64,000 nt of DNA, taken from assembly GCA_038121585.1 (NCBI GenBank), contig JAYONY010000003.1, positions 25,866 through 89,865 of the forward strand, read 5' to 3'. This DNA comes from an archaeon. Its GTDB lineage: Archaea > Nanobdellota > Nanobdellia > Pacearchaeales > GW2011-AR1. Below the pieces are notes generated by a model that saw only the letters and a program-made list of their open reading frames with translations, did not search any database and was not told where the DNA came from. The position numbers and the translations under genes were made by a program. Below are positions 21,324 to 62,928 of this stretch, in pieces (the first letter of the stretch is position 1; every line of letters begins with the position of its first letter).

Positions 21324-22754
21324 CTAGTAAACTATTCTAGGACCATATCCCCACTTTTCAACCGCACGGGCTAACGCAGAATACGGCCGCATATCAACAT
21401 AATGCTTGAGGGGCACGCCTTTCATTACAGCATCACGAGCTTGCTCAACAGCCTCAACACCAGCAACAACACCGTCAGGATGGCCTAACAAACCTCCACC
21501 ACACTGCAAAATAATATCCTCACCAAGCTCATGCATCACAAACTCAAAATCACCAGGATGTAAGCCTCCAGAAGCAGTCATCCAAACAGGCTTAATATGC
21601 TCCCAATTCTGTCCGAGCGAAGGAATTTTTGTATCGGGCTTCGTTATTCTATCTTGCAATACATGCCGAATATATACGGCCTCCCCATAATCCTCCATTT
21701 TCGCTAAAGGCGAACCACCATGCAATGAATCGACACCAAGTAATCTAAAGAGCTTTGCTAAAAAAACCATTGAAATAGAAAACCCGTGCAAATCACCTTT
21801 CCCATGCACTCCCGGAGAATTATCCCGGGTAATGAATCCGTGCATCGCACGATGTGCGTGAATTGCAAGACCCAAGTCAGCTCGACGAACAGAATCAACA
21901 CCAGTAAACCCAGTTGTAACTACATCCATCATCATAAAAATACCTTCATTGTCCTTAATGCATTTTGCGCGATCAAACATTGTAGCAATATTTGAATGAG
22001 TGATATTTGCTAAGTAGAATTTTTTATTACCTGTGCGATGATGTGCTCGCTTAGCCTCATGCAAAATTTTTCTTGTTCTTGTTGTAAAATGATTAAATGA
22101 TAAGCTCGTCAAATTCTCATCATCCTTAATGCCATCATAGGTGCCATCACCTGCAGTAAACAACATCTCTGCAAGCGCTGCTTGTTCTGCATCTGAGCGA
22201 CCAATTTTTGGCTTTGGCACGGTAATGACTAACGGCCCTTTAGGTTTATTTAGCATCTTACGAATACCTGCAACCCCAAACTTAGGACCTACAAACGCAC
22301 GAACCATTTTAGGAGGGAATAGAACATCATACACGCGCATCGCAGCAACCATTTTCATACCTGCAATATTACCAACAATCCCTGCTAAAAGACCTGAAAT
22401 ATTATCCTTTTCAAATAATTCGAGCGGGTATGCAACTTTGAACATGTGATTCTTATAATCAAGGTCAAACGCTAAAGCCCTATACTTTGCAGCACGATTC
22501 ATACCCGAGCCAGGCCCGTCATATACGTTCGTCCACGTACCCGTTGACGATTCAGCAGCAACAGTAGCTGCAGCACTCTCAAATAATTTCTGTTTAGGAA
22601 TCTTATGTTTTTTAGCTTCCTTAAGCGCACTCTCACTTAATTGCACCTTCAGTAGCGTAATAATAAAATCGCTCTTACGAGGCCTCCACCCTTTTTTTGC
22701 AACATAGTCTAATTGAACAGCCATTGTTTCACCTCTCGGAATAAAAGAACTCAT
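21324..22754 (-). CDS. rbcL: ribulose-1,5-bisphosphate carboxylase large subunit, form III-like (archaeal type)
   Basis: AAESSTGTWT, GIKDDENL, IHAHRAMHG and CGGGLLGHPDG match RuBisCO large-subunit signatures. Confidence 0.85.
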   Translation of the reverse strand: MSSFIPRGETMAVQLDYVAKKGWRPRKSDFIITLLKVQLSESALKEAKKHKIPKQKLFESAAATVAAESSTGTWTNVYDGPGSGMNRAAKYRALAFDLDYKNHMFKVAYPLELFEKDNISGLLAGIVGNIAGMKMVAAMRVYDVLFPPKMVRAFVGPKFGVAGIRKMLNKPKGPLVITVPKPKIGRSDAEQAALAEMLFTAGDGTYDGIKDDENLTSLSFNHFTTRTRKILHEAKRAHHRTGNKKFYLANITHSNIATMFDRAKCIKDNEGIFMMMDVVTTGFTGVDSVRRADLGLAIHAHRAMHGFITRDNSPGVHGKGDLHGFSISMVFLAKLFRLLGVDSLHGGSPLAKMEDYGEAVYIRHVLQDRITKPDTKIPSLGQNWEHIKPVWMTASGGLHPGDFEFVMHELGEDIILQCGGGLLGHPDGVVAGVEAVEQARDAVMKGVPLKHYVDMRPYSALARAVEKWGYGPRIVY

Positions 22755-33764: not shown

Positions 33765-35294
33765 ATGGGACGACAGGAGCAGATTGTTAATGAACGTCTG
33801 CGTAAGGTTTCTGAGTTGCGAGAGAAAGGAGTGAATCCATATCCACAACGCTATGATGTAACGCATCATGCGCAAGACTTACAGAAAAAACACGCAAAAC
33901 TCAAAGCAGGAACTGCTGCAAAACAAACTGTTTCTATCGCAGGACGAGTTATGACCTATCGTGATTTTGGTAAAATCGCATTTGGCGTACTACAAGATAG
34001 CTCAGGCACTATTCAAATCACGTTACAAAAAGGAAAAACATCTGAAGACCTGATGCAACTCTTCAAGAAATACGTTGACGCTGGTGACTTTGTAGGGGTA
34101 GCTGGAACGATTCATCGAACTGAACGTGGAGAATTAAGCGTTTTAGTTAAGAAAGCTGAAATTCTAACCAAGTCAATCTTACCATTACCAGAGAAATGGC
34201 ATGGGCTTCAAGAAAAAGAAGAGCGATACAGAAAAAGATATCTTGATTTAATTATGGACAGTGATGCACGGAAGCGATTTGCAACTCGAAGTACGATTAT
34301 CAGTTCACTACGAGCGCTCCTCATTGATGAAAACTTCTTAGAAGTAGAAACTCCAACACTCCAATCAGTGTACGGAGGAGCTTCAGCAACACCATTCACT
34401 ACTCATCTTAATGCTCTTGATATCGACTTATTCCTCTCAATCTCCCCAGAACTCTATTTGAAACGACTTATCGTTGGAGGATATGATCGAGTATTCACCA
34501 TCTGTAAAAACTTTAGAAATGAGGGAATTGATCGTGAGCACAATCCTGAATTTACCATGATGGAATATTATGCAGCATACAAAACGTACGAGTACCACAT
34601 GGAATTCACTGAAAAACTCTTTACTAAACTCAAGAAAGCACTCAAGACAGGCGAAACCATAGAATATTACGGTCAGAAGATCAGCCTCAAAACCCCTTTC
34701 AAACGAATCACCTTCCAAAAACTCATGCTCGAACAAACAGGGATTGATATCAACAAAGAATCGACATTCGATACACTCGCAAAAGCTATCAAAAGTAAAA
34801 AACTCAAAGGAGTAGATATTGCAGGATGCAAGCACTACGGAGCACTTCTTGACGAATTATACAAACGAATCGTACGACCAAACATTATCCAACCAACATT
34901 CCTCACGCACTATCCAGTAGAGATGATCGCACTCGCAAAACGAAATGAAGATGACAAATCAAAGATTAACAGTGTGCAACTCATCATTAACGGCGCAGAA
35001 ATAATGAAAGCCTACGATGAATTAAATGATCCAATCGACCAAGAAAACAGATTACGAGAACAACAAGAACACCTCGCAGCAGGTGATGATGAAGCAATGC
35101 CTATGGACGAAGACTTTATTACCGCGCTCAAACATGGGATGCCGCCAACAGCAGGGTACGGAATGGGTATTGATCGACTCACAATGCTCTTTACAGGACA
35201 AGACTCAATACGAGACGTTATCCTCTTTCCATTCATGCGTCCAGAAACACATTCGAAACATTCGAACAAAAAAGTAAAAGGAGGTACAAAATAA
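33765..35294 (+). CDS. lysS: lysyl-tRNA synthetase, class II
   Basis: N-terminal OB-fold anticodon-binding region. FRNEGIDREHNPEFTMMEYY is class II motif 2. GMGIDRL is motif 3. Confidence 0.9.
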   Translation: MGRQEQIVNERLRKVSELREKGVNPYPQRYDVTHHAQDLQKKHAKLKAGTAAKQTVSIAGRVMTYRDFGKIAFGVLQDSSGTIQITLQKGKTSEDLMQLFKKYVDAGDFVGVAGTIHRTERGELSVLVKKAEILTKSILPLPEKWHGLQEKEERYRKRYLDLIMDSDARKRFATRSTIISSLRALLIDENFLEVETPTLQSVYGGASATPFTTHLNALDIDLFLSISPELYLKRLIVGGYDRVFTICKNFRNEGIDREHNPEFTMMEYYAAYKTYEYHMEFTEKLFTKLKKALKTGETIEYYGQKISLKTPFKRITFQKLMLEQTGIDINKESTFDTLAKAIKSKKLKGVDIAGCKHYGALLDELYKRIVRPNIIQPTFLTHYPVEMIALAKRNEDDKSKINSVQLIINGAEIMKAYDELNDPIDQENRLREQQEHLAAGDDEAMPMDEDFITALKHGMPPTAGYGMGIDRLTMLFTGQDSIRDVILFPFMRPETHSKHSNKKVKGGTK

Positions 35295-35712: not shown

Positions 35713-36480
35713 ATGGCCCGGCTCCGTCTTTTTTTTGCATTATCCCTTAGTCTTTTCTTTCTTATTCAAACCGTGAGTGCACTCTCAGTACTCAATATTT
35801 ATGTTGACAGTTCAGGAACAGCACTCATCCTAGGGGAAACAGACCTTTCAGAAGGACTCCCTACAAATATCCAGATAAGCGATATGGGAGAAGTAACTGG
35901 CAGCACTTCAGCACTCACTTCTAAAAATGGAGAAGTCTGGACATTCTCACTTGATTTGCCTGAGACTGACATGACCGTCTTTCTACCACCTACTGCTACC
36001 ATAACCTCAATTAGCGGAGGGGAAATCTCACTATCTGGAAGCCGAATAGCAGTGTACGCTTCAGACGCACTCCAAGTAACGTACGTACTTGGGAGTGGAG
36101 AACTAGCAGTAGAACCATTTCCCCTAGCACTCCTCGGGTGGATACTAGTCGGGGCAGTAGCACTCATCGCCCTAGTCTTTTTACTCAACTGGTTTAATAG
36201 AGAAAATAAAATCAGACTTCCAAAACTCAGACCACATCCAGTGCACCAGCATAAAGCAGCGCATGATAAAATCGAATCATTACGTGGAGTTCTTAATGAA
36301 CGAGAACAGCAAATCGTTGATGAACTTAAAAGCCTTGGTAAAGTTAAAAGTTCCTACTTACGTCGAACAGTCGATATACCAAAAGCATCATTCTCACGAC
36401 ACATCCAAGAACTAGAACGTAAAGGCATCATTAAGAGAACAGGCGAAGGCCGGAACAAGTTCGTGGAATTAATTAGATAA
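35713..36480 (+). CDS. membrane-anchored transcriptional regulator: signal peptide, extracellular domain, one TM, cytoplasmic winged-helix HTH
   Basis: Signal MARLRLFFALSLSLFFLIQTVSA. TM LALLGWILVGAVALIALVFLL. C-terminal QQIVDELKSLGKVKSSYLRRTVDIPKASFSRHIQELERKGIIKR is a MarR/TrmB-like wHTH. Confidence 0.5.
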   Translation: MARLRLFFALSLSLFFLIQTVSALSVLNIYVDSSGTALILGETDLSEGLPTNIQISDMGEVTGSTSALTSKNGEVWTFSLDLPETDMTVFLPPTATITSISGGEISLSGSRIAVYASDALQVTYVLGSGELAVEPFPLALLGWILVGAVALIALVFLLNWFNRENKIRLPKLRPHPVHQHKAAHDKIESLRGVLNEREQQIVDELKSLGKVKSSYLRRTVDIPKASFSRHIQELERKGIIKRTGEGRNKFVELIR

Positions 36481-37275: not shown

Positions 37276-37315
37276 TCGCCACTTTTTATTTTATTTTATT
37301 TTTTAACCAACAATA

Positions 37316-37363
37316 GGTTCCGGAATTAGGTTCCGAAAACGTTCCAGAGGACTTACATAAAGA
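37316..37363 (+). promoter_or_regulatory. second copy of the GKTCC-repeat promoter element (ACGTTCCAGAGGACTTACATAAAGA)
   Basis: Same architecture as 36481-36527, ~90 nt upstream of the ATG at 37453. Confidence 0.45.
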
Positions 37364-37452: not shown

Positions 37453-38673
37453 ATGACACAACGAAACAGAACACTCGGCGTGATTGCGATACTCGCACTC
37501 CTACTTGGAAGTGTATTTTCCGTAGGAATTGCTAGTGCCGCATCAGGTAAAGGCAAATTCGGTACTGACAATGATGACAATGACTTTGAAGAAGATGATT
37601 TTGAAACAAACAATTTCTTTTCAGCTCGCGAACCAATCCCAGTAACTGATTTTGATGATAAAGACGTGGAAAAAGGTGACGTGAATGAAGACGAATCAGT
37701 CGACATCTTAGACTTCACCATGCTCTCCCACTTCGTTACTGGTAGTCGTAACTCAATAAACAATGAAGTAGCAGCTGACTTTGACGATGATGGATTTATC
37801 ACTTGGTACGATGTTGTAAAACTCGGTAATTACTTGTTTATGAATAATGATGTAGTGCTCTTAGGAGATGCTAATGATGACGGCAACGTTGACATAGCAG
37901 ACATTGCAGTACTCGGACAGTATGTGAATAAACGCCATATAATGGTTGACTTAGAAAACGCTGACTATAACGAGGATGGTACCATAGACAATGCTGACCG
38001 AATCGCATTACAAGACTACTTATTTGGTGAAGACGGCCCTATCTCAAAACGATTTGAGGACAAAGCACGAGTACGAGTACAAGATGTTACGAAAGTTTTG
38101 AACAGCATCCGTGAACACGACAGTGAAGGATTTAGTTTCCCAGTCATCCAATATACTGGCTACAGTGATGACCATGACGGCATGAAGTTTGTACTTTTTG
38201 AAAAACGAAGTACGAGCGACCCAACCGCTGAAGATATTATTGTAACAGACCGTTACTTTTCAGGAACTATTGGTCTTGCTAACGGTGTACGCTATTCACT
38301 CGAAGGCGACGCACTAGATGCGCTAAACGTATTTGCACAAGACGATACAGCAAACGCTGCAGGAACAGTAGCTGTTGACTTCGAAGATGAAGTACTGAGC
38401 ATAATCATTGATAGTGAAGAAACACGGTACTCATTAGACGATGTTGATCGGAAAGCAATTAAAACACAAGGTATTGGAGCAGTTATTGCACCTATTGCTA
38501 AGAGCCAAAACTCAGGCAAAGGTAACAATGACCTCTCTGTCCGCATTCGCGAACGAGTAGATGATGACACTGGCGAAACACAGCTTGAAATTAAAGGCAA
38601 AGGACTTGACACTAGTCAAGGCCAAAGCTTTTGGAAGCGACTCGTATCGTGGTTTAGATTCCAACGAAACTAA
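37453..38673 (+). CDS. secreted protein with four dockerin-like (EF-hand-like Ca-binding) repeats and a C-terminal domain shared with the next gene
   Basis: Signal peptide. Repeats GDVNEDESVDILDFTML, ADFDDDGFITWYDVVKL, GDANDDGNVDIADIAVL and ADYNEDGTIDNADRIAL. The C-terminal domain YTGYSDDHDGMKFVLFEKRS... is paralogous to 38809-39780. Confidence 0.6.
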   Translation: MTQRNRTLGVIAILALLLGSVFSVGIASAASGKGKFGTDNDDNDFEEDDFETNNFFSAREPIPVTDFDDKDVEKGDVNEDESVDILDFTMLSHFVTGSRNSINNEVAADFDDDGFITWYDVVKLGNYLFMNNDVVLLGDANDDGNVDIADIAVLGQYVNKRHIMVDLENADYNEDGTIDNADRIALQDYLFGEDGPISKRFEDKARVRVQDVTKVLNSIREHDSEGFSFPVIQYTGYSDDHDGMKFVLFEKRSTSDPTAEDIIVTDRYFSGTIGLANGVRYSLEGDALDALNVFAQDDTANAAGTVAVDFEDEVLSIIIDSEETRYSLDDVDRKAIKTQGIGAVIAPIAKSQNSGKGNNDLSVRIRERVDDDTGETQLEIKGKGLDTSQGQSFWKRLVSWFRFQRN

Positions 38674-38808
38674 CTACAACTAGCTTTATTTTTTTATTTT
38701 TTTATGTGTCAAAAACCTTGCAATATAGGTTCTTGAGCACCAAGATTTGTTTTTTCCACAAATCTTTTGTTTCGTTTATTTTATATACACCCTCGCCTCA
38801 TTATCAAT

Positions 38809-39780
38809 ATGGGTAAAGCATTCATTCTTTTTACGTTAGCATTACTAGTTATTGTACCGCTTGCAGTCGCTAAATCGGCGTTTGAATATGAGTATCGTGT
38901 AAAAGATGATGGCGAAATTCGTGAGCGCATTTCACTCTCAGGTGATGAAGCAACTATTTTACCAGGAGTAAAACCACCGGTTGATGAAGAAACAATTATT
39001 CCAAGCATTACAGGACGTGTTGTTGATGAAGATTCCGACGTAATATGGAGAAAAGGAGCGCTTTCGCCTGAAATTGTAACAGGTGAAGGGACTACTATCA
39101 CGAAAGCAACACGTATCCCTGAAGCCAGTAGTATTTTAGACCCTAAAGATGCTGCCTTGCGCGTTCCTTTCAACTATGATGAATACACAGCACTTATTCC
39201 TTCTCAAAAAGAAGATGCACTGCACTTTCCAACCATTGCATACTACGGATACGGGGATGCTTTCAAATTTATCGTGTTTGAACAACGAAGCGTTGTTGAA
39301 GATGACACTACTGCAATTACTCGTTCTTTCTCTGGGCGACTAGTAATTACTGATTCGCAACTTCCTGAACAAGAATTTACGCTGGACGGTGAAGAACTAC
39401 GTTCCTTAGTATTATTTGTTACTGGAGAACAAGTTGGGACTGCATCCTTTGATTTTGAGAACAACAAACTCAGTATTACCGCATACAATCAAGAATTTTC
39501 ATTTACTATCTTTGAAGCTGCTCGCGCACCAGTTCGAGAACGAGAAGGGGTTGACCCAGAACTCGTGATTGAAAAAAGCGGAGATATTCCAACTGCGCAA
39601 GAACGTGAGCAGTTTGAAAAAACATTGCAGGACGCTGTTGCTGCAGTTGATGAAAAAACCGAACCAGCAGTTCGAAAAGCTGGAGAGAGTGCGAGCGAAA
39701 TAACTGACATTTCACAAACAGAAATTCAACCTGGATTCTTAAGTTGGATTCGAAGCAAACTTATTGGTTTTTGGGGCTAA
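38809..39780 (+). CDS. secreted protein sharing the C-terminal domain of the upstream dockerin protein
   Basis: Signal peptide MGKAFILFTLALLVIVPLAVA. YYGYGDAFKFIVFEQRS...FSGRLVITD aligns with the 37453 protein. Confidence 0.5.
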   Translation: MGKAFILFTLALLVIVPLAVAKSAFEYEYRVKDDGEIRERISLSGDEATILPGVKPPVDEETIIPSITGRVVDEDSDVIWRKGALSPEIVTGEGTTITKATRIPEASSILDPKDAALRVPFNYDEYTALIPSQKEDALHFPTIAYYGYGDAFKFIVFEQRSVVEDDTTAITRSFSGRLVITDSQLPEQEFTLDGEELRSLVLFVTGEQVGTASFDFENNKLSITAYNQEFSFTIFEAARAPVREREGVDPELVIEKSGDIPTAQEREQFEKTLQDAVAAVDEKTEPAVRKAGESASEITDISQTEIQPGFLSWIRSKLIGFWG

Positions 39781-39938
39781 AACCCACTTTTAAACATAGA
39801 TTTACCTTATAAAGTTCGGATTAAATAATCTTTGGAAGAAACTTTTAAATAATGAAAAGATTATTTCAAATCAAGAAAGTCTGGGGATAAGAGGTGATAT
39901 ACTGATTCTCAAAGACACTTTACTAGAGATAACTCAAT

Positions 39939-42482
39939 GTGTTAACAATACACGAAAAACGACTAGCAATAGTAGCTTCAATATGCGCAATAGTAATAGT
40001 CGGAACAGTCTTAGGTGCAAATAGTGCGACAGCACCAGACCTAGCACCACGTTACGATGCAAAATCGCAAGACACACTCTCTAAATTTGAGAGAAGTAAA
40101 GGCACTGCGGGAGATGTTAACAATGACGGACGATTTGATATTGCAGACCCACGAGATCTTGCAGCACACTTGAGCGGAATAGGCAAGGCAACTAATTATG
40201 AAAACGGCGACTTTAATACTGACCGAGCAATTGACGGACGAGACGTTCGTGACATGCTTATCGCTCTTGAACGAGTCTACTTGTCTAATACCCTTGAACC
40301 AGGATTAGAACAGGAAATCGTCTATCTTCAAGGCACAGGCATCCAACCAATGCCATGGGAATGTAATGGACCATTTATTCGAGGTGATGCAAACGATGAC
40401 GGTACAGTGAATCTTGCAGATGTAGTAACAATGCTTGATAATTTATTCGTAATTAATCCACCATACCAGCCAACACCACGAAACTGTCGGGACCAAGTAG
40501 ATGCAAACGACAATGAAGGTTATAACATAGCAGATCCTATCACCGTTGCAATCTCACTCTTCCCCATTACAGGACAACCACCAGTTAGTATTCCGGAACC
40601 AAACGTGCTTGGACATGATGAAGACGCATACGGAGCGCTAGCTTGTAATGGAGTAGATGAAGATGGCGACTGCCCAGGAGACACTAACGGAGATGGAGTA
40701 GTTTGTAGTTATGGCGATATTGGCGTTGACGAAGGAGAATGTAAAGTGCGTTATGATGCCCATATCGGAGAAAGCATTGGTACAATTGGCCCAACACTCC
40801 TTACTGAACTTGACTTTGAAGCAATACTAACATCTGGAACATTCGCTGGGTCAACAACCACACAAACAGTAGAGCTAGCGAATGCACCACTGCTATCATT
40901 CATTCACTTCAAAGATAATGACTTCTTTGATGAGGGACCAGCACTTGGGCTTGCGATAGATAATTTCGATGAACTATTCACTCATCGTATAACATTTAAC
41001 CCGCCTGCTGTCGCCACAATTGCATCAGGATTAGACGAGTTTGCTGGTGAAACACTCACCACACTAGGACGAGACCTTTTTGTAGTCTATGCAGCTTACA
41101 CTCCAAACAATTTGGTAATGGAACTTGTTGATCAAGATATTCAAGATACACTTAGCTTTGGATCAATCGGTAACTATAACCATAACGGACAAGCATTCCA
41201 AGTGCAAATCTCATTCATTTCCCCAACACAAGCCCAGTTTGTCGTTAATGGGGAAGTTACTGGCCCGCTTAATGAGCAAAATTCATGGACCCTAACAAAT
41301 GATTACACCATTGTAGTTGATGAAATAATTGGTAATGACGTAACATTTGTCCTTGGACGAAATGAATATTACATGCAAAGCAATGGAGCCGATCTAGAAA
41401 TTAACAGTATTGATGTAGATCAATTTACTGATTACAAATGGACCTCTTCATTTACTTACACTGCTACACCCACAACAATTGAGCTCTCTGAAATTGCGCT
41501 TCTTAACCGGGCCGATGATGAAGTTGTGTTTGGTTTCCCAACATGCACCCCAACAACACCCGGATGTGGAACGCCAACCTCTGGAAGTGCTACGGATTAT
41601 CCATTAATTGACGCACTAGAGTTCACAATCACAAACGGGCTTGTACCAGGCGATTATGAAGAGCTTTCCATAGTGCCTGATGGCGATGATAGTTTTACGC
41701 TAACAGCACCAGTGACTGATGGAGTAGCAAGTCTTAATTTACTTTACAAAGACTCATCTGATACGTTTGCAGGCACCGGGTTAAATCCAGGCAGTTTACT
41801 TGCTAGCTCTATGATAAACACACTCTTTGTTGATGAAGACATTCACGATTGGTTTGTTGTATCGTATAATAATCCAGCAATAGAAGTACCCGAATCTTAT
41901 GTTATGAAAATTGACAACATCGATGACAGTGATCCATTCAACCCGACAGTAACTCTTAGAAGTACCGCAGTGGGATCAAACGTACAAGTATCCCTACAAG
42001 TAGGAGAAACAGAGGATATTGGTGGGGCGGCAATAACGCTCAACTTTGCAGATGATAACACGGGAGAAATTCAACTTCAAGCGGCGAACCCTTACACTCG
42101 ATTCGATAGGCTCTATACTAAAGAAGGTTTACGTGTAGACTTACCAGTCCAGTGTTCAACCGCTGCACCCCCCATACCAGAGTGTAACTTTAGCCCTGGA
42201 ACTACATCAACATATGTACTAAACTTGAATTACGAAGCAGGTATTGCAGATACTGCAATTACGCTTGGAATAAATTCATTTGAGACTTCAGTCGTAGGGG
42301 TTGGACCGCAACCAGACTATGAAACATATGACAACACTGGTATTTATGAAGGATTTTCCCAAAGTGAAAATCCAATCAGGACATTCTATCATACGGGCTT
42401 CGATCAAGACTTTGTCGAAATTCTCTACTACTACCATGATACCTACGGTCAGATAACACTCAACGGAAGAGCTTGGATTTAA
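39939..42482 (+). CDS. large (847 aa) secreted protein with N-terminal dockerin-like repeats
   Basis: TM/signal. Repeats GDVNNDGRFDIADPRDL, GDFNTDRAIDGRDVRDML, GDANDDGTVNLADVVTML and VDANDNEGYNIADPITVA. Large beta-rich remainder. Confidence 0.55.
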   Translation: MLTIHEKRLAIVASICAIVIVGTVLGANSATAPDLAPRYDAKSQDTLSKFERSKGTAGDVNNDGRFDIADPRDLAAHLSGIGKATNYENGDFNTDRAIDGRDVRDMLIALERVYLSNTLEPGLEQEIVYLQGTGIQPMPWECNGPFIRGDANDDGTVNLADVVTMLDNLFVINPPYQPTPRNCRDQVDANDNEGYNIADPITVAISLFPITGQPPVSIPEPNVLGHDEDAYGALACNGVDEDGDCPGDTNGDGVVCSYGDIGVDEGECKVRYDAHIGESIGTIGPTLLTELDFEAILTSGTFAGSTTTQTVELANAPLLSFIHFKDNDFFDEGPALGLAIDNFDELFTHRITFNPPAVATIASGLDEFAGETLTTLGRDLFVVYAAYTPNNLVMELVDQDIQDTLSFGSIGNYNHNGQAFQVQISFISPTQAQFVVNGEVTGPLNEQNSWTLTNDYTIVVDEIIGNDVTFVLGRNEYYMQSNGADLEINSIDVDQFTDYKWTSSFTYTATPTTIELSEIALLNRADDEVVFGFPTCTPTTPGCGTPTSGSATDYPLIDALEFTITNGLVPGDYEELSIVPDGDDSFTLTAPVTDGVASLNLLYKDSSDTFAGTGLNPGSLLASSMINTLFVDEDIHDWFVVSYNNPAIEVPESYVMKIDNIDDSDPFNPTVTLRSTAVGSNVQVSLQVGETEDIGGAAITLNFADDNTGEIQLQAANPYTRFDRLYTKEGLRVDLPVQCSTAAPPIPECNFSPGTTSTYVLNLNYEAGIADTAITLGINSFETSVVGVGPQPDYETYDNTGIYEGFSQSENPIRTFYHTGFDQDFVEILYYYHDTYGQITLNGRAWI

Positions 42483-42616: not shown

Positions 42617-43012
42617 ATGCCAAGCAACAAATCTAAAGGGTCACGTGTTGAGCGAGAATTACTCAAACTATTTACTGCGTCGGGTTGGCGGGCAGCGCGA
42701 GTTGCGGGCAGTGGCGTGCATGATGATTCACCGTGTGATTTAATTGCGGGAAAAATTGGCCGGAAAGGCTACGCTGTCGAGGTTAAATCAAGCAAGGCAA
42801 AAACAATTTACATTTCTAACGCGCAAGTCGAAGACTTCCTTGTATTCGCACATTCAATCGGGCTCAAACCAGTTATTGCAGTCAGATTTAATCGTGAAGG
42901 ATGGCTATTCCTCGATCCAAAACACATGCGCGACACAGGAAAAAATTGGGCTGTTGATTTAGAACTTGCAAAAGAGAAAGGGAACAAATTTAGTCAATTC
43001 TTCGAGCGTTAA
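42617..43012 (+). CDS. hjc: Holliday junction resolvase Hjc
   Basis: GSRVERELLKLFTASGWRAARVAGSG...CDLIAG...VEVKSS...AVRF matches the Hjc consensus, including the catalytic E and K. Confidence 0.75.
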   Translation: MPSNKSKGSRVERELLKLFTASGWRAARVAGSGVHDDSPCDLIAGKIGRKGYAVEVKSSKAKTIYISNAQVEDFLVFAHSIGLKPVIAVRFNREGWLFLDPKHMRDTGKNWAVDLELAKEKGNKFSQFFER

Positions 43013-43887: not shown

Positions 43888-43947
43888 TTTTCAAACAACT
43901 CCTTTTCCGAAACACATATTTATAAACTATAGTTGAACTATAGGAAC

Positions 43948-44193
43948 ATGGTTACAACAATACAGATTAGTGAATCACTCAAAGATAGGCTTGTAGCACT
44001 CAAGAGATCCCATAAAGACTCGTACGAAGATGTAATAGCTGCAGCGCTTAATCGTCAGGAAAAAGAACTAACAGACTATGAAAAAAATATGGCCGAAGGG
44101 TATATTGAGATGGCCGAAGAGACAATGAAAATAATGGATGAGTTCAAATATGCTGATGCAGAGATAGATTGGGAGTGGGATGGAGATCTTTAG
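43948..44193 (+). CDS. putative antitoxin (RHH-like), partner of MazF
   Basis: Its 3' end overlaps the mazF start by 14 nt. The N-terminal TTIQISESLKDRL is homologous to the 45397-45609 antitoxin. Confidence 0.55.
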   Translation: MVTTIQISESLKDRLVALKRSHKDSYEDVIAAALNRQEKELTDYEKNMAEGYIEMAEETMKIMDEFKYADAEIDWEWDGDL

Positions 44194-44524
44194 AGGCGAC
44201 ATTATAGTTGCTAATTTTGAACCAATCATTGGTTCTGAACAAGGAGGTGTTCGACCAGCATTAGTTATTCAAAACAATCTCGGAAATAAATATGGTCGAA
44301 CAACCATTGTTGCCCCCTTAACGACAACCACCTACCACCAAAAACATCCAACACGCGTGCCAATCAGCAAAAAGGAATCTAAACTCAAAAAAGATTCAAC
44401 AGTTTTGCTCCATCAAATACGGGTTATAGATAAGCGAAGAATTGGAAAACGAATTTCACGCATACCAATACACATACAGTATAAAGTTGATTCCGCGATT
44501 AAAGAAAGTCTCGGCCTTGCCTAA
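44180..44524 (+). CDS. mazF: MazF/PemK family toxin (mRNA interferase)
   Basis: RGDIIVANFEPIIGSEQGGVRPALVIQNN...TTIVAPLTT matches the PemK fold consensus. Confidence 0.8.
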   Translation: MEIFRGDIIVANFEPIIGSEQGGVRPALVIQNNLGNKYGRTTIVAPLTTTTYHQKHPTRVPISKKESKLKKDSTVLLHQIRVIDKRRIGKRISRIPIHIQYKVDSAIKESLGLA

Positions 44525-49046: not shown

Positions 49047-49781
49047 ATGAAAAAACATCATGCATTACTAATAACGGGACTATTCATGTTACTCGTACTT
49101 GCAAATACATTTATCTTTTCCCAGGCATTTACTGATTCCCGAGAAGCAGTCATTATCCTCAACGTCCTTGATGGCGATACAGTAAAACTTGAAGATGGGC
49201 GTAGTATTCGCATGCTTAACATTAATGCTGCAGAAAAAGGACGTGCTCATGCAGATGAAGCAACAACATACCTCAAACAATATGAGAACACGACAGTCTT
49301 ACTTGATGCTGCTGGAACCGGGCAGTATGGGCGAACACTCGGAAGATTATACACGCAAGATAACATATACATCAACTTAGAACTTGTTGCACAAGGACTC
49401 GTGCACGCGTATCTTGTTGATGATTCTGAAACCCGTGATTTTTCAGAAGTAGAGCAAATAGCTATTGCTCAGGGAAAAGGGCTTTGGCAACACTCCCCCC
49501 ACTACGAGTGCTTAGACGTAATGCTCAATTATGTAGAAGAATTTGTTACTCTAACCAACTATTGTCAAACAAACATGACTGATTGGACGCTCAAGGATTT
49601 ATCGACGAGAAACTATAAATTTAAGAAGAATACACCTGCTTCTTTTACACTCTATTCAGGCAATGGCATTGATACAAAAACAGAATACTATTGGGGGCGT
49701 GGAAGCGCCTGGAATGATGATGGCGACGCGATATTTATTCGTGATGCTGACGGTTTGCTTGTGTATTATGAGCAGTACTAG
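49047..49781 (+). CDS. secreted staphylococcal-nuclease-like thermonuclease (SNase) with a C-terminal lamin-tail-like domain
   Basis: Signal peptide. VLDGDTVKL...RMLNINAAE...YGRTLGRLY...NLELVAQGL matches the SNase fold. The C-terminal region resembles an LTD. Confidence 0.65.
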   Translation: MKKHHALLITGLFMLLVLANTFIFSQAFTDSREAVIILNVLDGDTVKLEDGRSIRMLNINAAEKGRAHADEATTYLKQYENTTVLLDAAGTGQYGRTLGRLYTQDNIYINLELVAQGLVHAYLVDDSETRDFSEVEQIAIAQGKGLWQHSPHYECLDVMLNYVEEFVTLTNYCQTNMTDWTLKDLSTRNYKFKKNTPASFTLYSGNGIDTKTEYYWGRGSAWNDDGDAIFIRDADGLLVYYEQY

Positions 49782-50562: not shown

Positions 50563-52056
50563 ATGAAAAGAGGGGCATTAGCATTAATTATAATCGGACT
50601 CGTTCTTGTAATGCTTGGCATGATTAGCATAGGCATAAGCCCAACAGGATACGTCGTTAGTGAAGACGTGCAAAAACAAATTGATTCTATACTTGCTACA
50701 AAAAATGTAGAGTCACGAGCAACAGTTGCAACAGCACCAACAACAGAAGGGACTGCAGTACAAGCACAAACATTACCTGAAGCAGAAGAAGAAGAAATAA
50801 TCAAGCAAATAACCGCAGTACAACGAGGAGAAACGAACATTGTTACTCGAACATTCCGTAAATTTTTCAGAAATAAACTTGATGCCGACGGTGATGGAGT
50901 AGTCGCTCTTAGTGATGCAGTACTTTTTGTGAAAGAACGTAATTATGCAGCTGCAGAACAAGTCTTTGAAACAATGTATGGTGGAGAGCCACTCGTATAC
51001 CAATTATCAACGGGGCAAGATACAACTACGTTTACAACCAAAGGCCTAAGCGGTACCTATGAACAAACATTTATTCCGCTCCAAACAAACTCCTCAGGCA
51101 ATAGCACTAACAGCACGGGCGGTAGCTCATCAAGCAGTGGCAGCAGCTCAGGTGGAGGAACACCAGGAGGACTTCCAATGCCCCCAGTATGTACAGGCAC
51201 ATTTGTAAGAGGTAATGTGAATAATGACCAACTATCTCTTATTGATATTGCAGATGTCATTTACGCACTAGAATTCTTATTCCAAACTGGAAACGCACCC
51301 CCATGCGGTGACATTGCAGACATCAATGATGATAACGTACTTGACATTAGCGACCCAGTCTACTTACTCGGATACCTCTTTGGAAATGGAGGGCAACCAT
51401 ACGAGCCATTTCCAACCACTGGCTATGACGAACAAGGAGAAGGAGCATTAACAGGATCACCATGGTCACTTTGTGATGGAATAAATAATGACGCAGCAAC
51501 TGGCGACTTACTCTGTGATGAAGGAGAAGGATGCCCAGGACCTAATGGATGTGGTATGGGCGGTGGCAATCCGACAAATAATACTAATAGCACTAACTCA
51601 ACCAACCCAACAATGCACCTCGAATGTGTCGGACTTCAATGCTTACCAGTACCAGGCGCAGGAGCAAACTTATGTGCAACAGACTTTGACTGTATGAATA
51701 CTACGAATACGAGCTTGCCAGATTTAGTTGTAGCATTTAATACAACAGTACTAAATCCAAGCACTAATAGCACTAATGGAACAGTGTTAGTAGGACTCGT
51801 AGTTACAAACGTCGGTCAGGCAAGTGCAGGACCGAGCCAAACAAGTCTTGCAATAGCACTTTCAGGATCACTTTACTCGCAAGAATCACTTGCTACACCA
51901 GCCCTCACGCCCGGAGCTTCAGCATCTCTCTTTTCAACACTCTCTTCATTCCCTGGAGGATCATATACTACTGATGCTTCCGCAGACGCAGGACAGGCAG
52001 TTGCAGAAAGTAATGAGAATAACAACGACGCAACAGGTAGCTTCATAGTACCCTAA
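50563..52056 (+). CDS. secreted protein with a dockerin-like duplicated segment and a C-terminal CARDB domain
   Basis: Signal/TM. GNVNNDQLSLIDIADVIYAL...GDIADINDDNVLDISDPVYLL is dockerin-like. The CARDB domain has LPDLVV...VTNVGQASAGP...ESNENNND at the C-terminus. Confidence 0.55.
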   Translation: MKRGALALIIIGLVLVMLGMISIGISPTGYVVSEDVQKQIDSILATKNVESRATVATAPTTEGTAVQAQTLPEAEEEEIIKQITAVQRGETNIVTRTFRKFFRNKLDADGDGVVALSDAVLFVKERNYAAAEQVFETMYGGEPLVYQLSTGQDTTTFTTKGLSGTYEQTFIPLQTNSSGNSTNSTGGSSSSSGSSSGGGTPGGLPMPPVCTGTFVRGNVNNDQLSLIDIADVIYALEFLFQTGNAPPCGDIADINDDNVLDISDPVYLLGYLFGNGGQPYEPFPTTGYDEQGEGALTGSPWSLCDGINNDAATGDLLCDEGEGCPGPNGCGMGGGNPTNNTNSTNSTNPTMHLECVGLQCLPVPGAGANLCATDFDCMNTTNTSLPDLVVAFNTTVLNPSTNSTNGTVLVGLVVTNVGQASAGPSQTSLAIALSGSLYSQESLATPALTPGASASLFSTLSSFPGGSYTTDASADAGQAVAESNENNNDATGSFIVP

Positions 52057-52087: not shown

Positions 52088-52609
52088 ATGAGTAAAAAGA
52101 TTCAGGCACGATTAATTATTGAGATTATGGGACGCCCACCAGAGCATATTGCAGAAACCCTACAAACACTCGTTGTGCGACTTGGTTCTGAAAACGGAGT
52201 GAGTATTCTTGAAAAGAGTTTTTTTGATCCTCAACCACTAGAAGATACTGATAATCTCTTTACTGCCTTCGCAGAAGTAGAAGCAGAGTTTGAGAACACA
52301 CAGTCATTCTTTGGGATTGTATTCAATTACATGCCTGCTAATGTAGAGATATTATCACCGAAAGAACTTAAGACGAGTAGTGCTGAACTCAGTGAGCTCT
52401 CAAACTTTATTTTACAACGACTCCACCAATACGATGCAATAACAAAACGTGTTGTGGGAGAACGAGATATTTTACTACGTCAAGTGAAGCACTTGCAAGG
52501 CAAAGGCCCTGGACCAGAAAACGCTACGAAAAAAGATACCCCTGCTAAAAGCACATCAAAACGTAAAGGCTCTAAGAAAAACACTAAGAAATCTTCTAAG
52601 AAGAAGTAG
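52088..52609 (+). CDS. hypothetical protein with a K-rich C-terminal tail
   Basis: 173 aa. No motif. Confidence 0.35.
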   Translation: MSKKIQARLIIEIMGRPPEHIAETLQTLVVRLGSENGVSILEKSFFDPQPLEDTDNLFTAFAEVEAEFENTQSFFGIVFNYMPANVEILSPKELKTSSAELSELSNFILQRLHQYDAITKRVVGERDILLRQVKHLQGKGPGPENATKKDTPAKSTSKRKGSKKNTKKSSKKK

Positions 52610-53843
52610 GCTTTCTTGGTGGCGGCATTGCTTCCTTACTCATTTTATTCTTTCGAGGACCATTACTCTTTGTTTTTAGGTATCTCGCAACGATAATGAT
52701 GAGAACGATTAAGACTATAGAAGCTATGAGCCACCCAATAACTACCCCGATTCCTTGCTCACCATCACCATCAAGACACTCCCCAAGACAACATTGTGAA
52801 TAATCAAGTGAAGTAACAGTCTCCCCATCACAAGTTTGTGAACCCAAGCAATCATTACCACCGAGATCTTCATGACAGAGTAATTGTGCAGTTTCTGGAG
52901 GCTCTTCCCCAGTATACTCAATACTAATTGGGACATCAACAGAAATCTCCCCGTTCGAAATTCTAATAACTTCTTGAATTGGTTGGTTAGATTCGACAGG
53001 AGTGAGCAAAACATCAACCGTTGTACCAGGAGCAATGCTTGGAATAAAGGCCGGTTGAGCAGTTAATAGTGAATCATCATATACCACAACTACATTATCT
53101 ATAGCGTCCGCGGTAGGATTATGAATGCTTAAAGTATAACTTTGTAGATTATCAATAACTACCAAACTATCAATCTGCTCAGGAACTACAGAGAAAATAA
53201 ATTCTTCAGTGATAGTTTGATTTTGTTCCGAGGTTGTATTTTGAGCTGGACCCTCACCAAGTGATTGTCCAACATATACCGGCACAGTATACGCCCCAAC
53301 AGTTACCCCCATAAACCCTATTGGAGTGCTTTCAGGAAGAGTAACATAGATATCATTCTCTCCAGGACTAATAGCCACCTCATTACCGCCAGCAGTAATA
53401 GTGCCTGGAAAGTCTTCGTAGGACGTATAGGTGAATTCTAGCACTGTGTCTGTAGCGCGAACAATCCCTGGTCGAATAGTCGCTACTGCGCTTTGATTTG
53501 TTACCCTAAATGAATCAGCAATATCCTCAAAAACAACTACTCCATTCGATACGGTTGCAACGTCGTGAACATACAACGTGTAATTGTTCTGACTACTTGG
53601 AGCAACACCCCATATAAACCATGAACTACCAAGCCGTTTCACCCCATATTCAAAAGGCACTTGCACATTATTACGCTTGAGTTCGATTTGATCAGGAGTG
53701 ATTGGTTGCAACACAGCACCTCCAATTTCAACAATCATAGTTTCTTGCTGCGCATACGTTTCAGCAAGCGTAGTTGAGAGAGCTGTTACACCACTTACTG
53801 ACATCAACACCAACACACACACAAATACTGTCCTATACATCAT
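52596..53843 (-). CDS. surface protein: signal peptide, ectodomain, Cys-rich stalk, C-terminal TM and a basic cytoplasmic tail
   Basis: SP MMYRTVFVCVLVLMSVSGVTA. Cys cluster LLCHEDLGGNDCLGSQTCDGE...CCLGEC. TM VVIGWLIASIVLIVLIIIV. KR/P-rich tail. Confidence 0.55.
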   Translation of the reverse strand: MMYRTVFVCVLVLMSVSGVTALSTTLAETYAQQETMIVEIGGAVLQPITPDQIELKRNNVQVPFEYGVKRLGSSWFIWGVAPSSQNNYTLYVHDVATVSNGVVVFEDIADSFRVTNQSAVATIRPGIVRATDTVLEFTYTSYEDFPGTITAGGNEVAISPGENDIYVTLPESTPIGFMGVTVGAYTVPVYVGQSLGEGPAQNTTSEQNQTITEEFIFSVVPEQIDSLVVIDNLQSYTLSIHNPTADAIDNVVVVYDDSLLTAQPAFIPSIAPGTTVDVLLTPVESNQPIQEVIRISNGEISVDVPISIEYTGEEPPETAQLLCHEDLGGNDCLGSQTCDGETVTSLDYSQCCLGECLDGDGEQGIGVVIGWLIASIVLIVLIIIVARYLKTKSNGPRKNKMSKEAMPPPRKPTSS

Positions 53844-53844
53844 T

Positions 53845-55662
53845 CTATCGACTAATTTGCTTTAATTTTCTAAGTGTATCGTTAAGCTCTTTATCAGTGC
53901 GTGAATTTCTAGGCACTCTTCGAGCTGGTGGTGTGCCACGAGGCATGCCTGATTGCATTCTTGCAGGAGCAGCTCCAAAAGATGGAGGAGGACTATCACG
54001 ACCAAAACCGCCAGGAGGCATCTTACCAGCACTTTTTGGAGGTTTCTTCTGGAATAATCGCCTCAAACGCTTTCTAAAGAGTAAGAGGATGAGCAACAGT
54101 ACAATAAGAGCTATTAATACAATAATCACGATATTAATGGTGCCATCATCTACTGGATCTGTATCAACCACACAACACACAAGCCCTGGGTCTGAACACT
54201 CAAAATCTTTTTGTTCCTCATCAAGGGAAGGGTTACAACTTAGATAACAAGTTCCACCAAAATCAGTACATTCATCCTGAGTATTTGTCACGATAGGCTC
54301 ACATACGGAAGTACAACAGCTCCCTTCAGAAGAAGGCTCTACTGGCCCAGTACATTGCTCGTTAGAATCACACAATACTCCGCCCTGATCTGAACAAGTA
54401 GGTTCTTCAACAGGAACGGTACAACAAATGTCAAGACTACTTGTACAAGCCGCAACGGGAACTCTTGTCCCACCAGCACTATTACATGCAGGGCCAGGCT
54501 CAACACAGTATCCCGGAACACTAACTCCACAAATAAGTGTTTCACCACCACCTCCTGAAACAGTTGGTACTGAAGTCGGCCACCCGGCGTACAATAAGAA
54601 TGCAGTATCACGCAAATTATCTCCGTTCCAACACCCTGCAGGAGTCTGTACATTAAGCAAATATTCGTACGTATCAATCACTTCTTGAGCTGAAGAACCT
54701 TGCAGTGCTAAAAGTGCTAATGCAGTATTATAGAACTTCCCATAGCCTGAGCCTGGCGCCTGCCAATATTGTCCCTGAATCTGTGACTGAATAATCGCGT
54801 CATATTGATCATCACCTTGCGCAACTTTATACAAAAAACTATCAGGGAAATATTTCACATTATCTTCCGCAAGAGCTAGTAAATAAGGCAGATACGGAGT
54901 AATATCCTCCCCTATTTTTGCAAGTGTTAACGCACCCCAAAGTGTTCCCTCATATGAACATTGAGAACCTTGCTTTAAACAAAGAGAATTAACAGATTCT
55001 TCAGTAGTCCCTGACGAAGCAGCTGAGTGCGTATTTGGGGATATGAAAATAGTGCTTGAACCATCTTTTTGGTAGAGCATATTCGTTACAAAATCCTGGT
55101 CACAACTAATTTGAAAGGTTTCATCAAGACAAGACGTTTTAACCTTAAGCCAGTATCCAGAGGAAGTGATATCAAAACAATTACCTGGCGCGCCACTTAA
55201 CGTCATATCATCAAGTACTGAGACAGAATGCGTGTTACCTTGATAGTTCAACGTGCATTCTGACGCCGCATGGTTATTAATATCAATTTGTAAGAACCAA
55301 GAAAGATCATCCGAGGTATCAGTTTGTGCAAGAAGCCATTCTCCAATAGGAGCGGTATCAAGATTCACTCGATCATACGCAAGCCCTACTAGCGCAGTAT
55401 CTCGCACTTTACAACTCCCTTCAGGCCAACAATCATCACCGCCTAAATCCCCAAGCCGGCTTATTAGTTTAGCATCTGCACCAACTGAGAGCATGCCAAA
55501 CACTGCTTCGTCAAGTGAAAGAGCACTTTCTTCTCTTGCATCAATAAGATCATCAAGACATTGTCGAGCAAGTGTAACGCCTGGTGGCTCAGATTGTGCA
55601 ACTGCAAGTGGTACAAGCACTACCACTAGCATTAATGCGAGAATCACCCCTCGTTTTCCCAT
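53845..55662 (-). CDS. large surface protein with prenyltransferase/terpene-cyclase-like alpha-toroid repeats, Cys-rich stalk, TM and Pro/Arg-rich tail
   Basis: SP. Repeats such as GCWNGDNLRDTAFLLYAG and TLWGALTLAKIG. Many CC/CxC pairs. TM IVIIVLIALIVLLLILLL. Tail PPGGFGRDSPPPSFG. Confidence 0.5.
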   Translation of the reverse strand: MGKRGVILALMLVVVLVPLAVAQSEPPGVTLARQCLDDLIDAREESALSLDEAVFGMLSVGADAKLISRLGDLGGDDCWPEGSCKVRDTALVGLAYDRVNLDTAPIGEWLLAQTDTSDDLSWFLQIDINNHAASECTLNYQGNTHSVSVLDDMTLSGAPGNCFDITSSGYWLKVKTSCLDETFQISCDQDFVTNMLYQKDGSSTIFISPNTHSAASSGTTEESVNSLCLKQGSQCSYEGTLWGALTLAKIGEDITPYLPYLLALAEDNVKYFPDSFLYKVAQGDDQYDAIIQSQIQGQYWQAPGSGYGKFYNTALALLALQGSSAQEVIDTYEYLLNVQTPAGCWNGDNLRDTAFLLYAGWPTSVPTVSGGGGETLICGVSVPGYCVEPGPACNSAGGTRVPVAACTSSLDICCTVPVEEPTCSDQGGVLCDSNEQCTGPVEPSSEGSCCTSVCEPIVTNTQDECTDFGGTCYLSCNPSLDEEQKDFECSDPGLVCCVVDTDPVDDGTINIVIIVLIALIVLLLILLLFRKRLRRLFQKKPPKSAGKMPPGGFGRDSPPPSFGAAPARMQSGMPRGTPPARRVPRNSRTDKELNDTLRKLKQISR

Positions 55663-58826: not shown

Positions 58827-59606
58827 ATGAAAAAGGGGTGTTTGCAAGGGTTTAACTCTCGAGGACAGATGACTATGTTCATTATCATCGCTCTCGGACT
58901 CGTAGGCGCAATGCTCATCTACCTCATTGTTCGAGGTGATCAAAACCCTTTTGGACTTTTTGATGGGGATGAAGAACCTGCAACGTTTGTTCGGACCTGC
59001 GTTCGTGACACCGCCCGTGAAACAATAGCCACAATGCTTCCTCAAGGCGGATTTGTCACACCAAGCAATTACATACTGTACGGAGGAGCGCAGATAGAAT
59101 ATATTTGTAGCACACCAAACTTCTATGATACGTGCACCATGCAACACCCATCATTCACTACGGTCTTACAAGAAGAATTACGCGCGGAAATAACAGATGA
59201 GATAAGCGCGTGCTATACGAGCCTTGAAGAAAATTTGCGAGACGAAGGATTTAGCGTATCAGCAGAAGGAGAAGACATACTAGTTACCGTCCTGCCTGGC
59301 ACTGTGCGCGTAGAAGTGCAACGATCAATAACCTACACTGGAGAATCAACCCAAACAGTGCCTCACGTAACAACCTCGTTTCAAACACCACTCTACGAGT
59401 TTGGCATGCTCGCCTCAACCATCGCTAATGCAGAAGCAGCAAACTGCGACTTTGATTATATACTGTACATGCAAAATTACCCTCAATGGGACTTGCGCAA
59501 ATGGACAACATCTGATGGGAGTAAAATTTACACAATGCATGATTTAGAAAGCGATACTACCATGAACATAGCTACACGGGGGTGCGTTTTACCCGCAGGA
59601 CTATGA
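58827..59606 (+). CDS. class III signal peptide (archaeal type IV pilin/archaellin-like) protein, paralogue A
   Basis: Leader MKKGCLQGFNSRGQ then MTMFIIIALGLVGAMLIYLIV, a prepilin-peptidase motif of the form [KR]GQ followed by hydrophobic residues. Paralogue of 62929-63693. Confidence 0.55.
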   Translation: MKKGCLQGFNSRGQMTMFIIIALGLVGAMLIYLIVRGDQNPFGLFDGDEEPATFVRTCVRDTARETIATMLPQGGFVTPSNYILYGGAQIEYICSTPNFYDTCTMQHPSFTTVLQEELRAEITDEISACYTSLEENLRDEGFSVSAEGEDILVTVLPGTVRVEVQRSITYTGESTQTVPHVTTSFQTPLYEFGMLASTIANAEAANCDFDYILYMQNYPQWDLRKWTTSDGSKIYTMHDLESDTTMNIATRGCVLPAGL

Positions 59607-62890: not shown

Positions 62891-62928
62891 AGCTAAAGGA
62901 TTAAAAATATAGAGGGACTCAGTAGACT

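Follow-up and report, generated by a model that had tools for sequence, protein, structure and literature searches.

What would a small-genome archaeon do with dockerins that have no evident cohesin to bind? The question is raised by three consecutive genes, here called P1, P2 and P3, on a 64,000-nucleotide (nt) stretch of archaeal DNA (hereafter the window; GenBank assembly GCA_038121585.1, contig JAYONY010000003.1, positions 25,866 to 89,865 of the forward strand). A first-pass annotation had described three secreted proteins in a row, two of them with dockerin-type repeats, and had suggested a cellulosome-like or host-anchoring assembly. By sequence and modelled structure, P1 carries two genuine type I dockerin modules, which are predicted to bind calcium. 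The explanation we favour, and hold with about even confidence, is that a locus for surface proteins has expanded in this lineage, and that proteins anchored by a C-terminal tail would dock a partner through their dockerins in a non-enzymatic role. The three genes are:

37453..38673, + strand: P1, 406 amino acids (aa); signal peptide, acidic stretch, double dockerin, A-type beta-domain, disordered linker, amphipathic tail
38767..39780, + strand: P2 open reading frame (ORF), 337 aa; the database copy spans 38809..39780, with an ATG start, 323 aa
39939..42482, + strand: P3, 847 aa; signal peptide, two divergent dockerins, Asp/Cys-rich linker, orphan body of ~570 aa

All three ORFs were recovered at these positions, each with a hydrophobic N-terminal signal sequence, as the first-pass annotation had it. 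P2 consists of a signal peptide, an unassigned N-terminal region, an A-type beta-domain, a linker and a tail, without a dockerin. Each of the three proteins was a singleton when clustered at 90% identity. No anomaly in base composition was seen across the cluster, and there was therefore no sign of a recent foreign origin. The window sequence is also present in the Logan assemblies SRR26337539 and SRR26337537, and in NCBI. It carries an archaeal 16S-tRNA(Ala)-23S rRNA operon, a RuBisCO large subunit and the Holliday junction resolvase Hjc. The 70 closest Hjc-anchored loci (Hjc identity 55–72%) all came from metagenome-assembled genomes of Pacearchaeota, Woesearchaeota or Nanoarchaeota. The rRNA operon and these 70/70 lineage labels identify the organism as a small-genome DPANN-type archaeon, in line with the initial proposal. 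Related loci and contigs are referred to below by L numbers.

Dockerin modules of P1 and P3

P1 and P3 each contained four copies of the dockerin-type repeat pattern, and the remaining ORFs of the window had none; the eight matches compare with 0.025 expected from shuffled sequences, ~300-fold above chance. Loop positions 1, 3, 5 and 12, the calcium ligands, were D or N in 8/8 repeats of the two proteins, and position 9 was D or N in 7/8 and Thr in 1/8. The original count of four repeats per protein stood, with the correction that four repeats make two dockerin modules in each. The modules, and the other features on which this section draws, are:

37672..37842, + strand: P1 dockerin module 1, aa 74–130, repeats from aa 76 and 109; stretch 74–128 matches the Pfam family PF00404
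37861..38034, + strand: P1 dockerin module 2, aa 137–194, repeats from aa 139 and 171
40107..40274, + strand: P3 dockerin module 1, aa 57–112; local dockerin hidden Markov model (HMM) 5e-10
40353..40580, + strand: P3 dockerin module 2, aa 139–214, of the 'C-x-G-P-F-I-R-G-D' subtype with two conserved Cys
40779..42479, + strand: P3 body, an orphan with no detectable relative or repeat
50563..52056, + strand: secreted CARDB protein with one P3-type dockerin module (51181–51399) and a C-terminal CARDB domain

P1 scored 67.3 bits against the Pfam HMM PF00404 (Dockerin_1; cut-off 22.9) over two stretches. Module 2 matched the dockerin of Clostridium thermocellum CelS (1daq, E=9.6e-9) among PDB sequences, and a two-module PDB chain (8x39_A) aligned with both P1 modules (E=1.3e-4). 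In the AlphaFold2 (AF2) model, the helices of module 1 were predicted with a pLDDT of 70–87, and the helix pattern fitted the dockerin fold of paired F-hands with two long helices and a short one. In Foldseek comparisons, the modelled modules superposed on the solved type I dockerins 4fl4, 2mte, 3ul4 and 6kge (TM-score 0.68–0.87, root-mean-square deviation 0.8–2.2 Å, probability 1.00). The dockerin identity proposed for P1 was thus upheld by both the family model and the modelled fold. Double dockerins are rare; they are described from C. thermocellum, some of them 'with no partner' domain (PMC12484212). Like P1, dDoc_0689 of C. thermocellum, which resides on an S8 protease, has two complete tandem dockerin modules; PDB entry 8x39 is probably its chain, judging by molecule name and length. 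dDoc_0689, however, is bacterial and cellulosomal and binds known scaffoldin cohesins, whereas the double dockerin of P1 is archaeal, N-terminal and fused to a beta-domain and a tail. A stand-alone double dockerin in the related locus L003 resembles the partnerless double dockerins of PMC12484212.

P3 was a less straightforward case. Its PF00404 score of 16.8 bits lies under the cut-off, as does that of a P3 paralog (17.8 bits). A profile of the second module type was built from four sequences (P3, the P3 paralog and two CARDB proteins) and compared with the PDB; all 25 matches were dockerins or dockerin-containing proteins, the best at 7e-8. In addition, the P3 cassette aligned (E=2e-14) with the dockerin cassette of the related locus L083, which itself scores 62.7 bits on Pfam. 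Because of these profile matches and the homology to a Pfam-passing cassette, the P3 modules were accepted as divergent dockerins; the first-pass assignment of P3 fails on the Pfam cut-off taken by itself and is retained on this other evidence.

The P3 paralog (471 aa, Logan contig L080, 4220–5635) has no Pfam label on record and lies ~2.5–3.9 kb upstream of window position 1, assuming that L080 is collinear with the window. Over their first 280 aa, the paralog and P3 had 39% identity (E=1e-43), sharing a near-identical signal peptide, the double-dockerin cassette and the Asp/Cys-rich linker, and their C-terminal bodies were unrelated. The P3 body matched only itself in a word-indexed search of 5.8 billion proteins, found no match among the sampled loci and contained no internal repeats. 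The CARDB protein (CARDB, 42.9 bits; dockerin by local HMM, 3e-8) has an ortholog of identical layout in L003. Together with P1, this gives four dockerin carriers in the portion of the genome inspected, which comprised the window and ~8–10 kb beyond each end (~82 kb): P1, P3, the P3 paralog and the CARDB protein. The placing of one export-plus-dockerin cassette on differing bodies is how dockerins serve as targeting tags. The P3-like dockerin protein of L083 (8150–9112) has yet another body, composed of repeats of the form 'EGGYIITGYT...YLVK.DA.GNEEWS.TFGG..ADEG.SVQPTS' and unrelated to that of P3; a similar repeat occurs in a partial ORF of L069.

Type I dockerin modules are the hallmark of cellulosomal enzymes, and the best PDB matches of P1 were cellulosomal dockerins, so a polysaccharide-degrading complex resembling a cellulosome has to be considered. 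We regard it as highly improbable. Pfam searches found no glycoside hydrolase, carbohydrate esterase, polysaccharide lyase or carbohydrate-binding module on P1, P3, the P3 paralog or the CARDB proteins (0/5 dockerin carriers of the organism under study and L003). The cohesin family PF00963 had no match at E<=1 among the secreted or membrane-looking proteins of the window, as the first-pass annotation had noted, and no cohesin was found among the precomputed Pfam labels ~8–10 kb beyond either window end. Nor was a cohesin or scaffoldin found in relatives, in the interval between the genes for lysyl-tRNA synthetase (LysRS) and Hjc. Two large secreted proteins at 52596–55662 (- strand; 415 and 605 aa), which had been put forward as possible carriers of cohesin-like domains, gave no HMM signal for cohesin and no Pfam match; both are conserved in L003 (392 and 616 aa). 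The idea of a cellulosome-like assembly is disfavoured, given that neither cohesin nor scaffoldin was found in ~82 kb and that no dockerin carrier had a carbohydrate-active domain.

Archaeal dockerins outside cellulose degradation have precedents. Non-cellulosomal dockerin and cohesin proteins occur in Archaeoglobus fulgidus, from which archaeal examples were first known, and in the anaerobic methanotrophic archaea ANME-1 and ANME-2, where such dockerins are abundant; a role in surface assembly or in the interaction of cells has been proposed (PMC9012536). As in the organism under study, these are type I modules on secreted proteins with no link to cellulose degradation. The differences are that A. 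fulgidus and ANME genomes encode cohesins, up to five in ANME proteins (PMC9012536), whereas none was found in the ~82 kb inspected here, and that the carriers here (a new beta-domain/tail protein, an orphan 847-aa protein and a CARDB protein) are unlike theirs. In the literature searched, we found no paper that ties dockerins to Pacearchaeota, Woesearchaeota or Nanoarchaeota.

The beta-domain family and its gene slot

P1 and P2 share a domain, termed A-type, with 28% identity over 123 aa (BLASTP, E=1e-11). The first-pass annotation had reported a shared C-terminal domain of ~150 aa. The domain is real and belongs to no known family; it spans ~115 aa and does not stand at the very C-terminus, being followed by a disordered linker of ~50–65 aa and a conserved tail of ~15 aa:

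38128..38469, + strand: P1 A-type beta-domain, aa 226–339, nine predicted strands
39202..39540, + strand: P2 A-type beta-domain, by BLASTP to P1, E=1e-11
38626..38670, + strand: P1 tail, SFWKRLVSWFRFQRN; tail HMM E=8e-5, hydrophobic moment 0.71, net charge +4
39733..39777, + strand: P2 tail, GFLSWIRSKLIGFWG; tail HMM E=1.7e-4

AF2 predicted nine strands with a pLDDT of ~90 for the domain and disorder for the linker. The domain had no match in Pfam or NCBIfam, and Foldseek returned no fold match at E<=0.001 in PDB or BFVD; the nearest folds were meanders of the LolA/LolB/nitrobindin type (E>=0.086, TM-score ~0.2). A word-indexed search of 5.8 billion proteins found no relatives of the P1 C-terminal region, and an exhaustive HMMER search of 1.84 billion cluster representatives returned five true relatives of the domain. 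With a sixth from a metagenome, the family comprises eight unique members, P1 and P2 included. Three further matches of the exhaustive search (P0005, P0008 and P0010) were judged spurious, without a formal test, as repetitive and apparently bacterial surface-repeat proteins that lack the family layout. That layout consists of a signal peptide, an optional double dockerin, the ~115-aa domain, a disordered and mostly acidic linker and the ~15-aa tail. By these searches, the A-type domain family is new.

The genes lie in a slot between LysRS and Hjc that varies among relatives. Its landmarks in the window are:

33765..35294, + strand: LysRS, by Pfam labels; upstream boundary of the variable slot
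35713..36480, + strand: winged helix-turn-helix (wHTH) protein; signal peptide, ~125-aa outside domain ('LNIYVD..G'), transmembrane helix, cytoplasmic winged helix
36504..36527, + strand: 24-nt element CGTTCCAGAKGACTTACATAAAGA, copy 1, 20 nt upstream of the PepSY start codon
36547..37275, + strand: PepSY protein, secreted, with two PepSY domains (PF03413, 92 bits)
37340..37363, + strand: 24-nt element CGTTCCAGAKGACTTACATAAAGA, copy 2, 90 nt upstream of the P1 start codon, after GTTCC boxes
42617..43012, + strand: Hjc (NF040854, 105 bits); downstream slot boundary and synteny anchor

In most relatives, LysRS is directly or nearly directly upstream of Hjc. In a subset, a wHTH gene and then a gene for a secreted, tail-bearing protein stand between the two. 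The window lineage has PepSY, P1, P2 and P3 in the slot, the PepSY gene being a lineage-specific insertion that is absent from this position in relatives; the order in L083 is LysRS, regulator, a P1-like protein and a protein with a P3-type dockerin cassette. The wHTH protein has the winged-helix motif 'SFSRHIQELE.KG.IKRTGEG.NKFVEL' and weak Pfam matches to HTH families (DUF7343, MarR_2, HVO_A0114). Its orthologs (~250 aa, 42–47% identity) were found in L004 (229–963), L014, L023, L045, L070, L072, L076, L077 and L082–L131. A wHTH-anchored metagenome scan gave 50 further loci, 43 of them with a downstream ORF. That ORF encoded a tail-family protein in 31/43 (30 B/C-type, the usual type in the slot, and one A-type), and Hjc followed in the 13 loci where it was detected. 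The two-gene module of regulator and tail protein recurs in 39 of the Pacearchaeota/Woesearchaeota-type loci examined, 8 from reference-genome or Logan organisms and 31 from metagenomes.

The B/C-type domain is internally homologous (HH probability 96%). Homology between it and the A-type domain was rejected at an hhalign probability of 7%, which became 2% once the profiles were enlarged; iterative HMM searches begun from one domain never reached the other, and an apparent bridge through L104 and L105 arose from linker and tail, not from the domain. Position, layout and tail are conserved in the slot and the globular domain differs, so that the view of one family with a swapped domain stands on those three features. 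Dockerins are fused to A-type tail proteins in P1, P0004, P0006 and L083 and to C-type tail proteins in L131 and L087; in L003, the stand-alone double dockerin adjoins a dockerin-free A-type protein as a separate gene. The dockerins of relatives scored 68.5 (L003), 58.3 and 62.7 (L083) and 65.2 bits (L131) on PF00404, and the fusions fall into at least three different architectures. As far as the sequences compared here reach, the regulator/tail-protein module and its repeated dockerin fusion are new.

The 24-nt element occurs exactly twice in the window against an expectation of 0, and only in contigs of the organism under study. A TATA-like ACATAAAG forms part of it, and repeated GTTCC boxes lie ahead of it. 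The element may be a shared promoter or operator, perhaps for the adjacent wHTH protein; adjacency and the shared element are what suggest that this protein could control P1 and the PepSY gene. In having an outside domain, one transmembrane helix and a DNA-binding domain in one polypeptide, and a gene that adjoins possible targets, the wHTH protein resembles ToxR/CadC-type regulators. The topology is reversed, however, with an N-terminal outside domain and a C-terminal wHTH, and the family is archaeal. Long T-runs at 37276–37310 and 38674–38705, directly after the stop codons of PepSY and P1, have the look of poly-T terminators of archaea and point to separate transcription of PepSY, P1 and P2 rather than a single operon.

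Could the A-type domain itself be the missing dockerin receptor? P2 would then be a membrane anchor, P1 could form head-to-tail chains, and the remaining carriers (P3, the P3 paralog and the CARDB protein) would be recruited as cargo. We consider this distinctly unlikely, in spite of a Rosetta-stone pattern in which double dockerin and A-type domain are fused in P1, P0004, P0006 and L083 and are separate neighbours in L003. The P1-type double dockerin was found in 4/6 organisms with the A-type domain and in 0/9 loci with B/C-type domains (Fisher p=0.011, for samples that are non-independent). One narrow sub-lineage accounts for every occurrence of the A-type domain and of either dockerin type among the loci sampled, and the failure to find a cohesin in ~82 kb would fit as well. 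On the other hand, the domain is unlike cohesins by HMM or fold, although the PDB does hold cohesin-dockerin complexes; the candidate of a hidden cohesin was rejected since there was neither an HMM match nor a cohesin among the Foldseek PDB matches. An AF2 model of dockerins plus domain gave a predicted TM-score of 0.46, with a low-confidence linker and no confident packing, which is a weak test as it came without interface output. Finally, since dockerins also occur fused to the C-type domain (in L131 and L087), which is unrelated to the A-type domain, the association is not specific to the latter. A fuller scheme of cohesin-free docking, with the A-type domain as a new kind of dockerin receptor, P2 as base, P1 as self-linking adaptor, the other carriers as cargo and the wHTH sensor as a switch, possibly for host contact, would amount to a minimal scaffold on the cell surface; it seems to us improbable.

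The C-terminal tail

The tail has the form FWxRxxxFFxR, is ~15 aa long and is conserved across A-type and B/C-type proteins. Fourteen tails had a hydrophobic moment of 0.31–0.86 over 11 residues and a net charge of +2 to +6; as a helix, the tail is amphipathic, cationic and aromatic. When a tail profile was run against 1.16 Mb of loci and the window, all significant matches (E<1e-3) were training sequences, i.e. slot proteins. The sole new match, L014 (E=0.048), lies in the same slot; a training member, L072, scored 0.084. On the sequences at hand, the conserved tail is new. A general sorting tag was rejected, as the profile gave nothing convincing outside the slot within ~1.2 Mb. An archaeosortase-type sorting signal (PGF-CTERM and similar, in which a transmembrane helix and a basic cluster come after a signature motif) was likewise rejected, the tail being too short at ~15 aa and too charged for a transmembrane helix, and NCBIfam reported no CTERM-type model for P1–P3.

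The tail is akin to the C-terminal amphipathic helices of the MinD/FtsA type, which are also short terminal segments of Phe/Trp/Leu and Lys/Arg with a high hydrophobic moment (0.78 for Escherichia coli FtsA, against 0.3–0.86 for the tails). This is a resemblance in kind and not homology. By this analogy, the tail would bind membranes. Because the tail proteins are exported, it would meet the outer face of the archaeal membrane or of a foreign one.

The tail could instead act in sorting or processing, or as a ligand peptide recognised by another protein, such as the wHTH outside domain or an S-layer component; tail protein and regulator would then form a signalling pair. The wHTH and tail-protein genes are linked in 9/11 loci and in 31/43 metagenome loci, and the regulator is conserved (42–47% identity) far beyond its neighbour, in which similarity becomes undetectable while the tail itself stays conserved. 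That the tail profile found nothing convincing outside the slot counts against a general anchor or sorting tag, to the benefit of this alternative. Yet the tail has neither a transmembrane helix nor a known archaeal sorting motif, NCBIfam offers no CTERM-type model for it, and its Phe/Trp and Arg/Lys residues and high hydrophobic moment give it the look of interfacial membrane-binding helices. Moreover, the B-type tail proteins of L035, L036, L039 and L043 have no wHTH neighbour. We judge a signalling or sorting role to be unlikely, if worth keeping in mind.

Surface assembly and its genomic setting

We return to the explanation favoured at the outset, tail-anchored surface proteins that dock a partner. 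The ancestral unit between LysRS and Hjc would have been a gene for a membrane-spanning wHTH regulator and one for a Sec-exported tail protein, in which a signal peptide and a small beta-domain precede a disordered acidic stalk and an amphipathic C-terminal helix of cationic and aromatic character. In the window lineage, a tail protein with the rare A-type beta-domain would have been duplicated into P1 and P2, and two type I dockerin modules in tandem would have been added to P1 on its N-terminal side. The PepSY protein and P3 would have joined alongside, P3 being one of at least three proteins of the genome with the divergent dockerin cassette on unrelated bodies. After export, the tail, lying in the membrane interface, would tether P1 and P2, and the stalk would keep beta-domain and dockerins off the surface. 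With calcium bound, the dockerins would attach to some protein other than a recognisable cohesin, one with no gene in the vicinity. Such an assembly at the surface, linked by dockerins and without enzymatic function, would most plausibly serve the architecture of the cell surface or contact between cells. That such a partner exists, what it is and what the assembly does are inferred here, as are membrane binding by the tail and regulation by the wHTH protein.

Several observations weigh against this explanation. No dockerin receptor was found in the ~82 kb of genome inspected. Most tail proteins in relatives have no dockerin, and the core function of the tail family therefore does not need one. 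Between A-type and B/C-type domains, no homology could be detected (HH probability 2–7%). AF2 modelled the tail as a short helix at low confidence (pLDDT ~50), and the membrane-targeting helices of MinD and FtsA act on the cytoplasmic face of bacterial membranes, not outside the cell.

The partner might also belong to another cell. A surface protein on a host cell, cohesin-like or otherwise, would then be the target by which the dockerins fasten an episymbiont to that cell, as the first-pass annotation had also suggested. These lineages are generally regarded as symbionts, an established view, and no self-encoded cohesin was found in ~82 kb. The slot evolves fast (A-type versus B/C-type domains, the orphan P3 body, singletons at 90% identity), as interaction surfaces typically do. 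In Omnitrophota nanobacteria, a giant ORF carries nine non-cellulosomal dockerins, for which a role as adhesins has been proposed (PMC10066038), and non-cellulosomal dockerins have been proposed to act in cell-cell interaction in ANME consortia (PMC9012536). Omnitrophota provide a parallel in being ultra-small, probably host-dependent microbes with dockerins; they differ in being bacterial and in using a single giant protein, whereas the organism under study has several small proteins with one or two modules each. The data from ~82 kb do not separate a host partner from a self partner, and we rate host anchoring as unlikely, though deserving of attention.

Other genes of the window and its surroundings were noted. 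A long run of barely annotated secreted or membrane proteins extends over 59582–64000 and L078 6675–20765 (1095–1102, 254, 507, 185, 692, 157, 309, 175, 167 and >782 aa). It may be a surface-structure gene cluster; its only matches were weak ones to Big_13 and DUF4625, and a similar set is present in L020. An exported staphylococcal-nuclease homolog fused to a lamin-tail domain (49047–49781) and a trypsin-like serine protease (178–1029) fit a scavenging lifestyle. The RuBisCO large subunit (21324–22754, - strand; two Pfam domains, scoring 206 and 93 bits) belongs to an otherwise reduced-looking genome and is presumably of the nucleotide-salvage type known from DPANN. At 43933–44524, a small DUF7557-like gene overlaps a PemK-family toxin gene, a likely toxin-antitoxin pair with a counterpart in L003; slightly beyond the pair, the opposite strand carries a second DUF7557-like gene. 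In the relative that encodes P0006, a short RVT_1 gene and an NTP_transf_2/Polbeta gene (L076 3017–4196, - strand) lie beyond Hjc and a thioredoxin reductase; the reverse-transcriptase (RVT_1) and nucleotidyltransferase genes could belong to a retroelement.

Little is known of the way in which DPANN archaea construct their surfaces or adhere to other cells, and most of their secreted proteins are without annotation. The locus supplies testable candidates in the form of dockerins, a well-understood calcium-dependent plug, on several uncharacterised surface proteins. A dockerin partner, if found, might reveal a new receptor fold for dockerins. Whether it belonged to the organism itself, to a host or to the beta-domain, such a partner would show whether docking of the cohesin-dockerin type serves the surface assembly of a symbiont.

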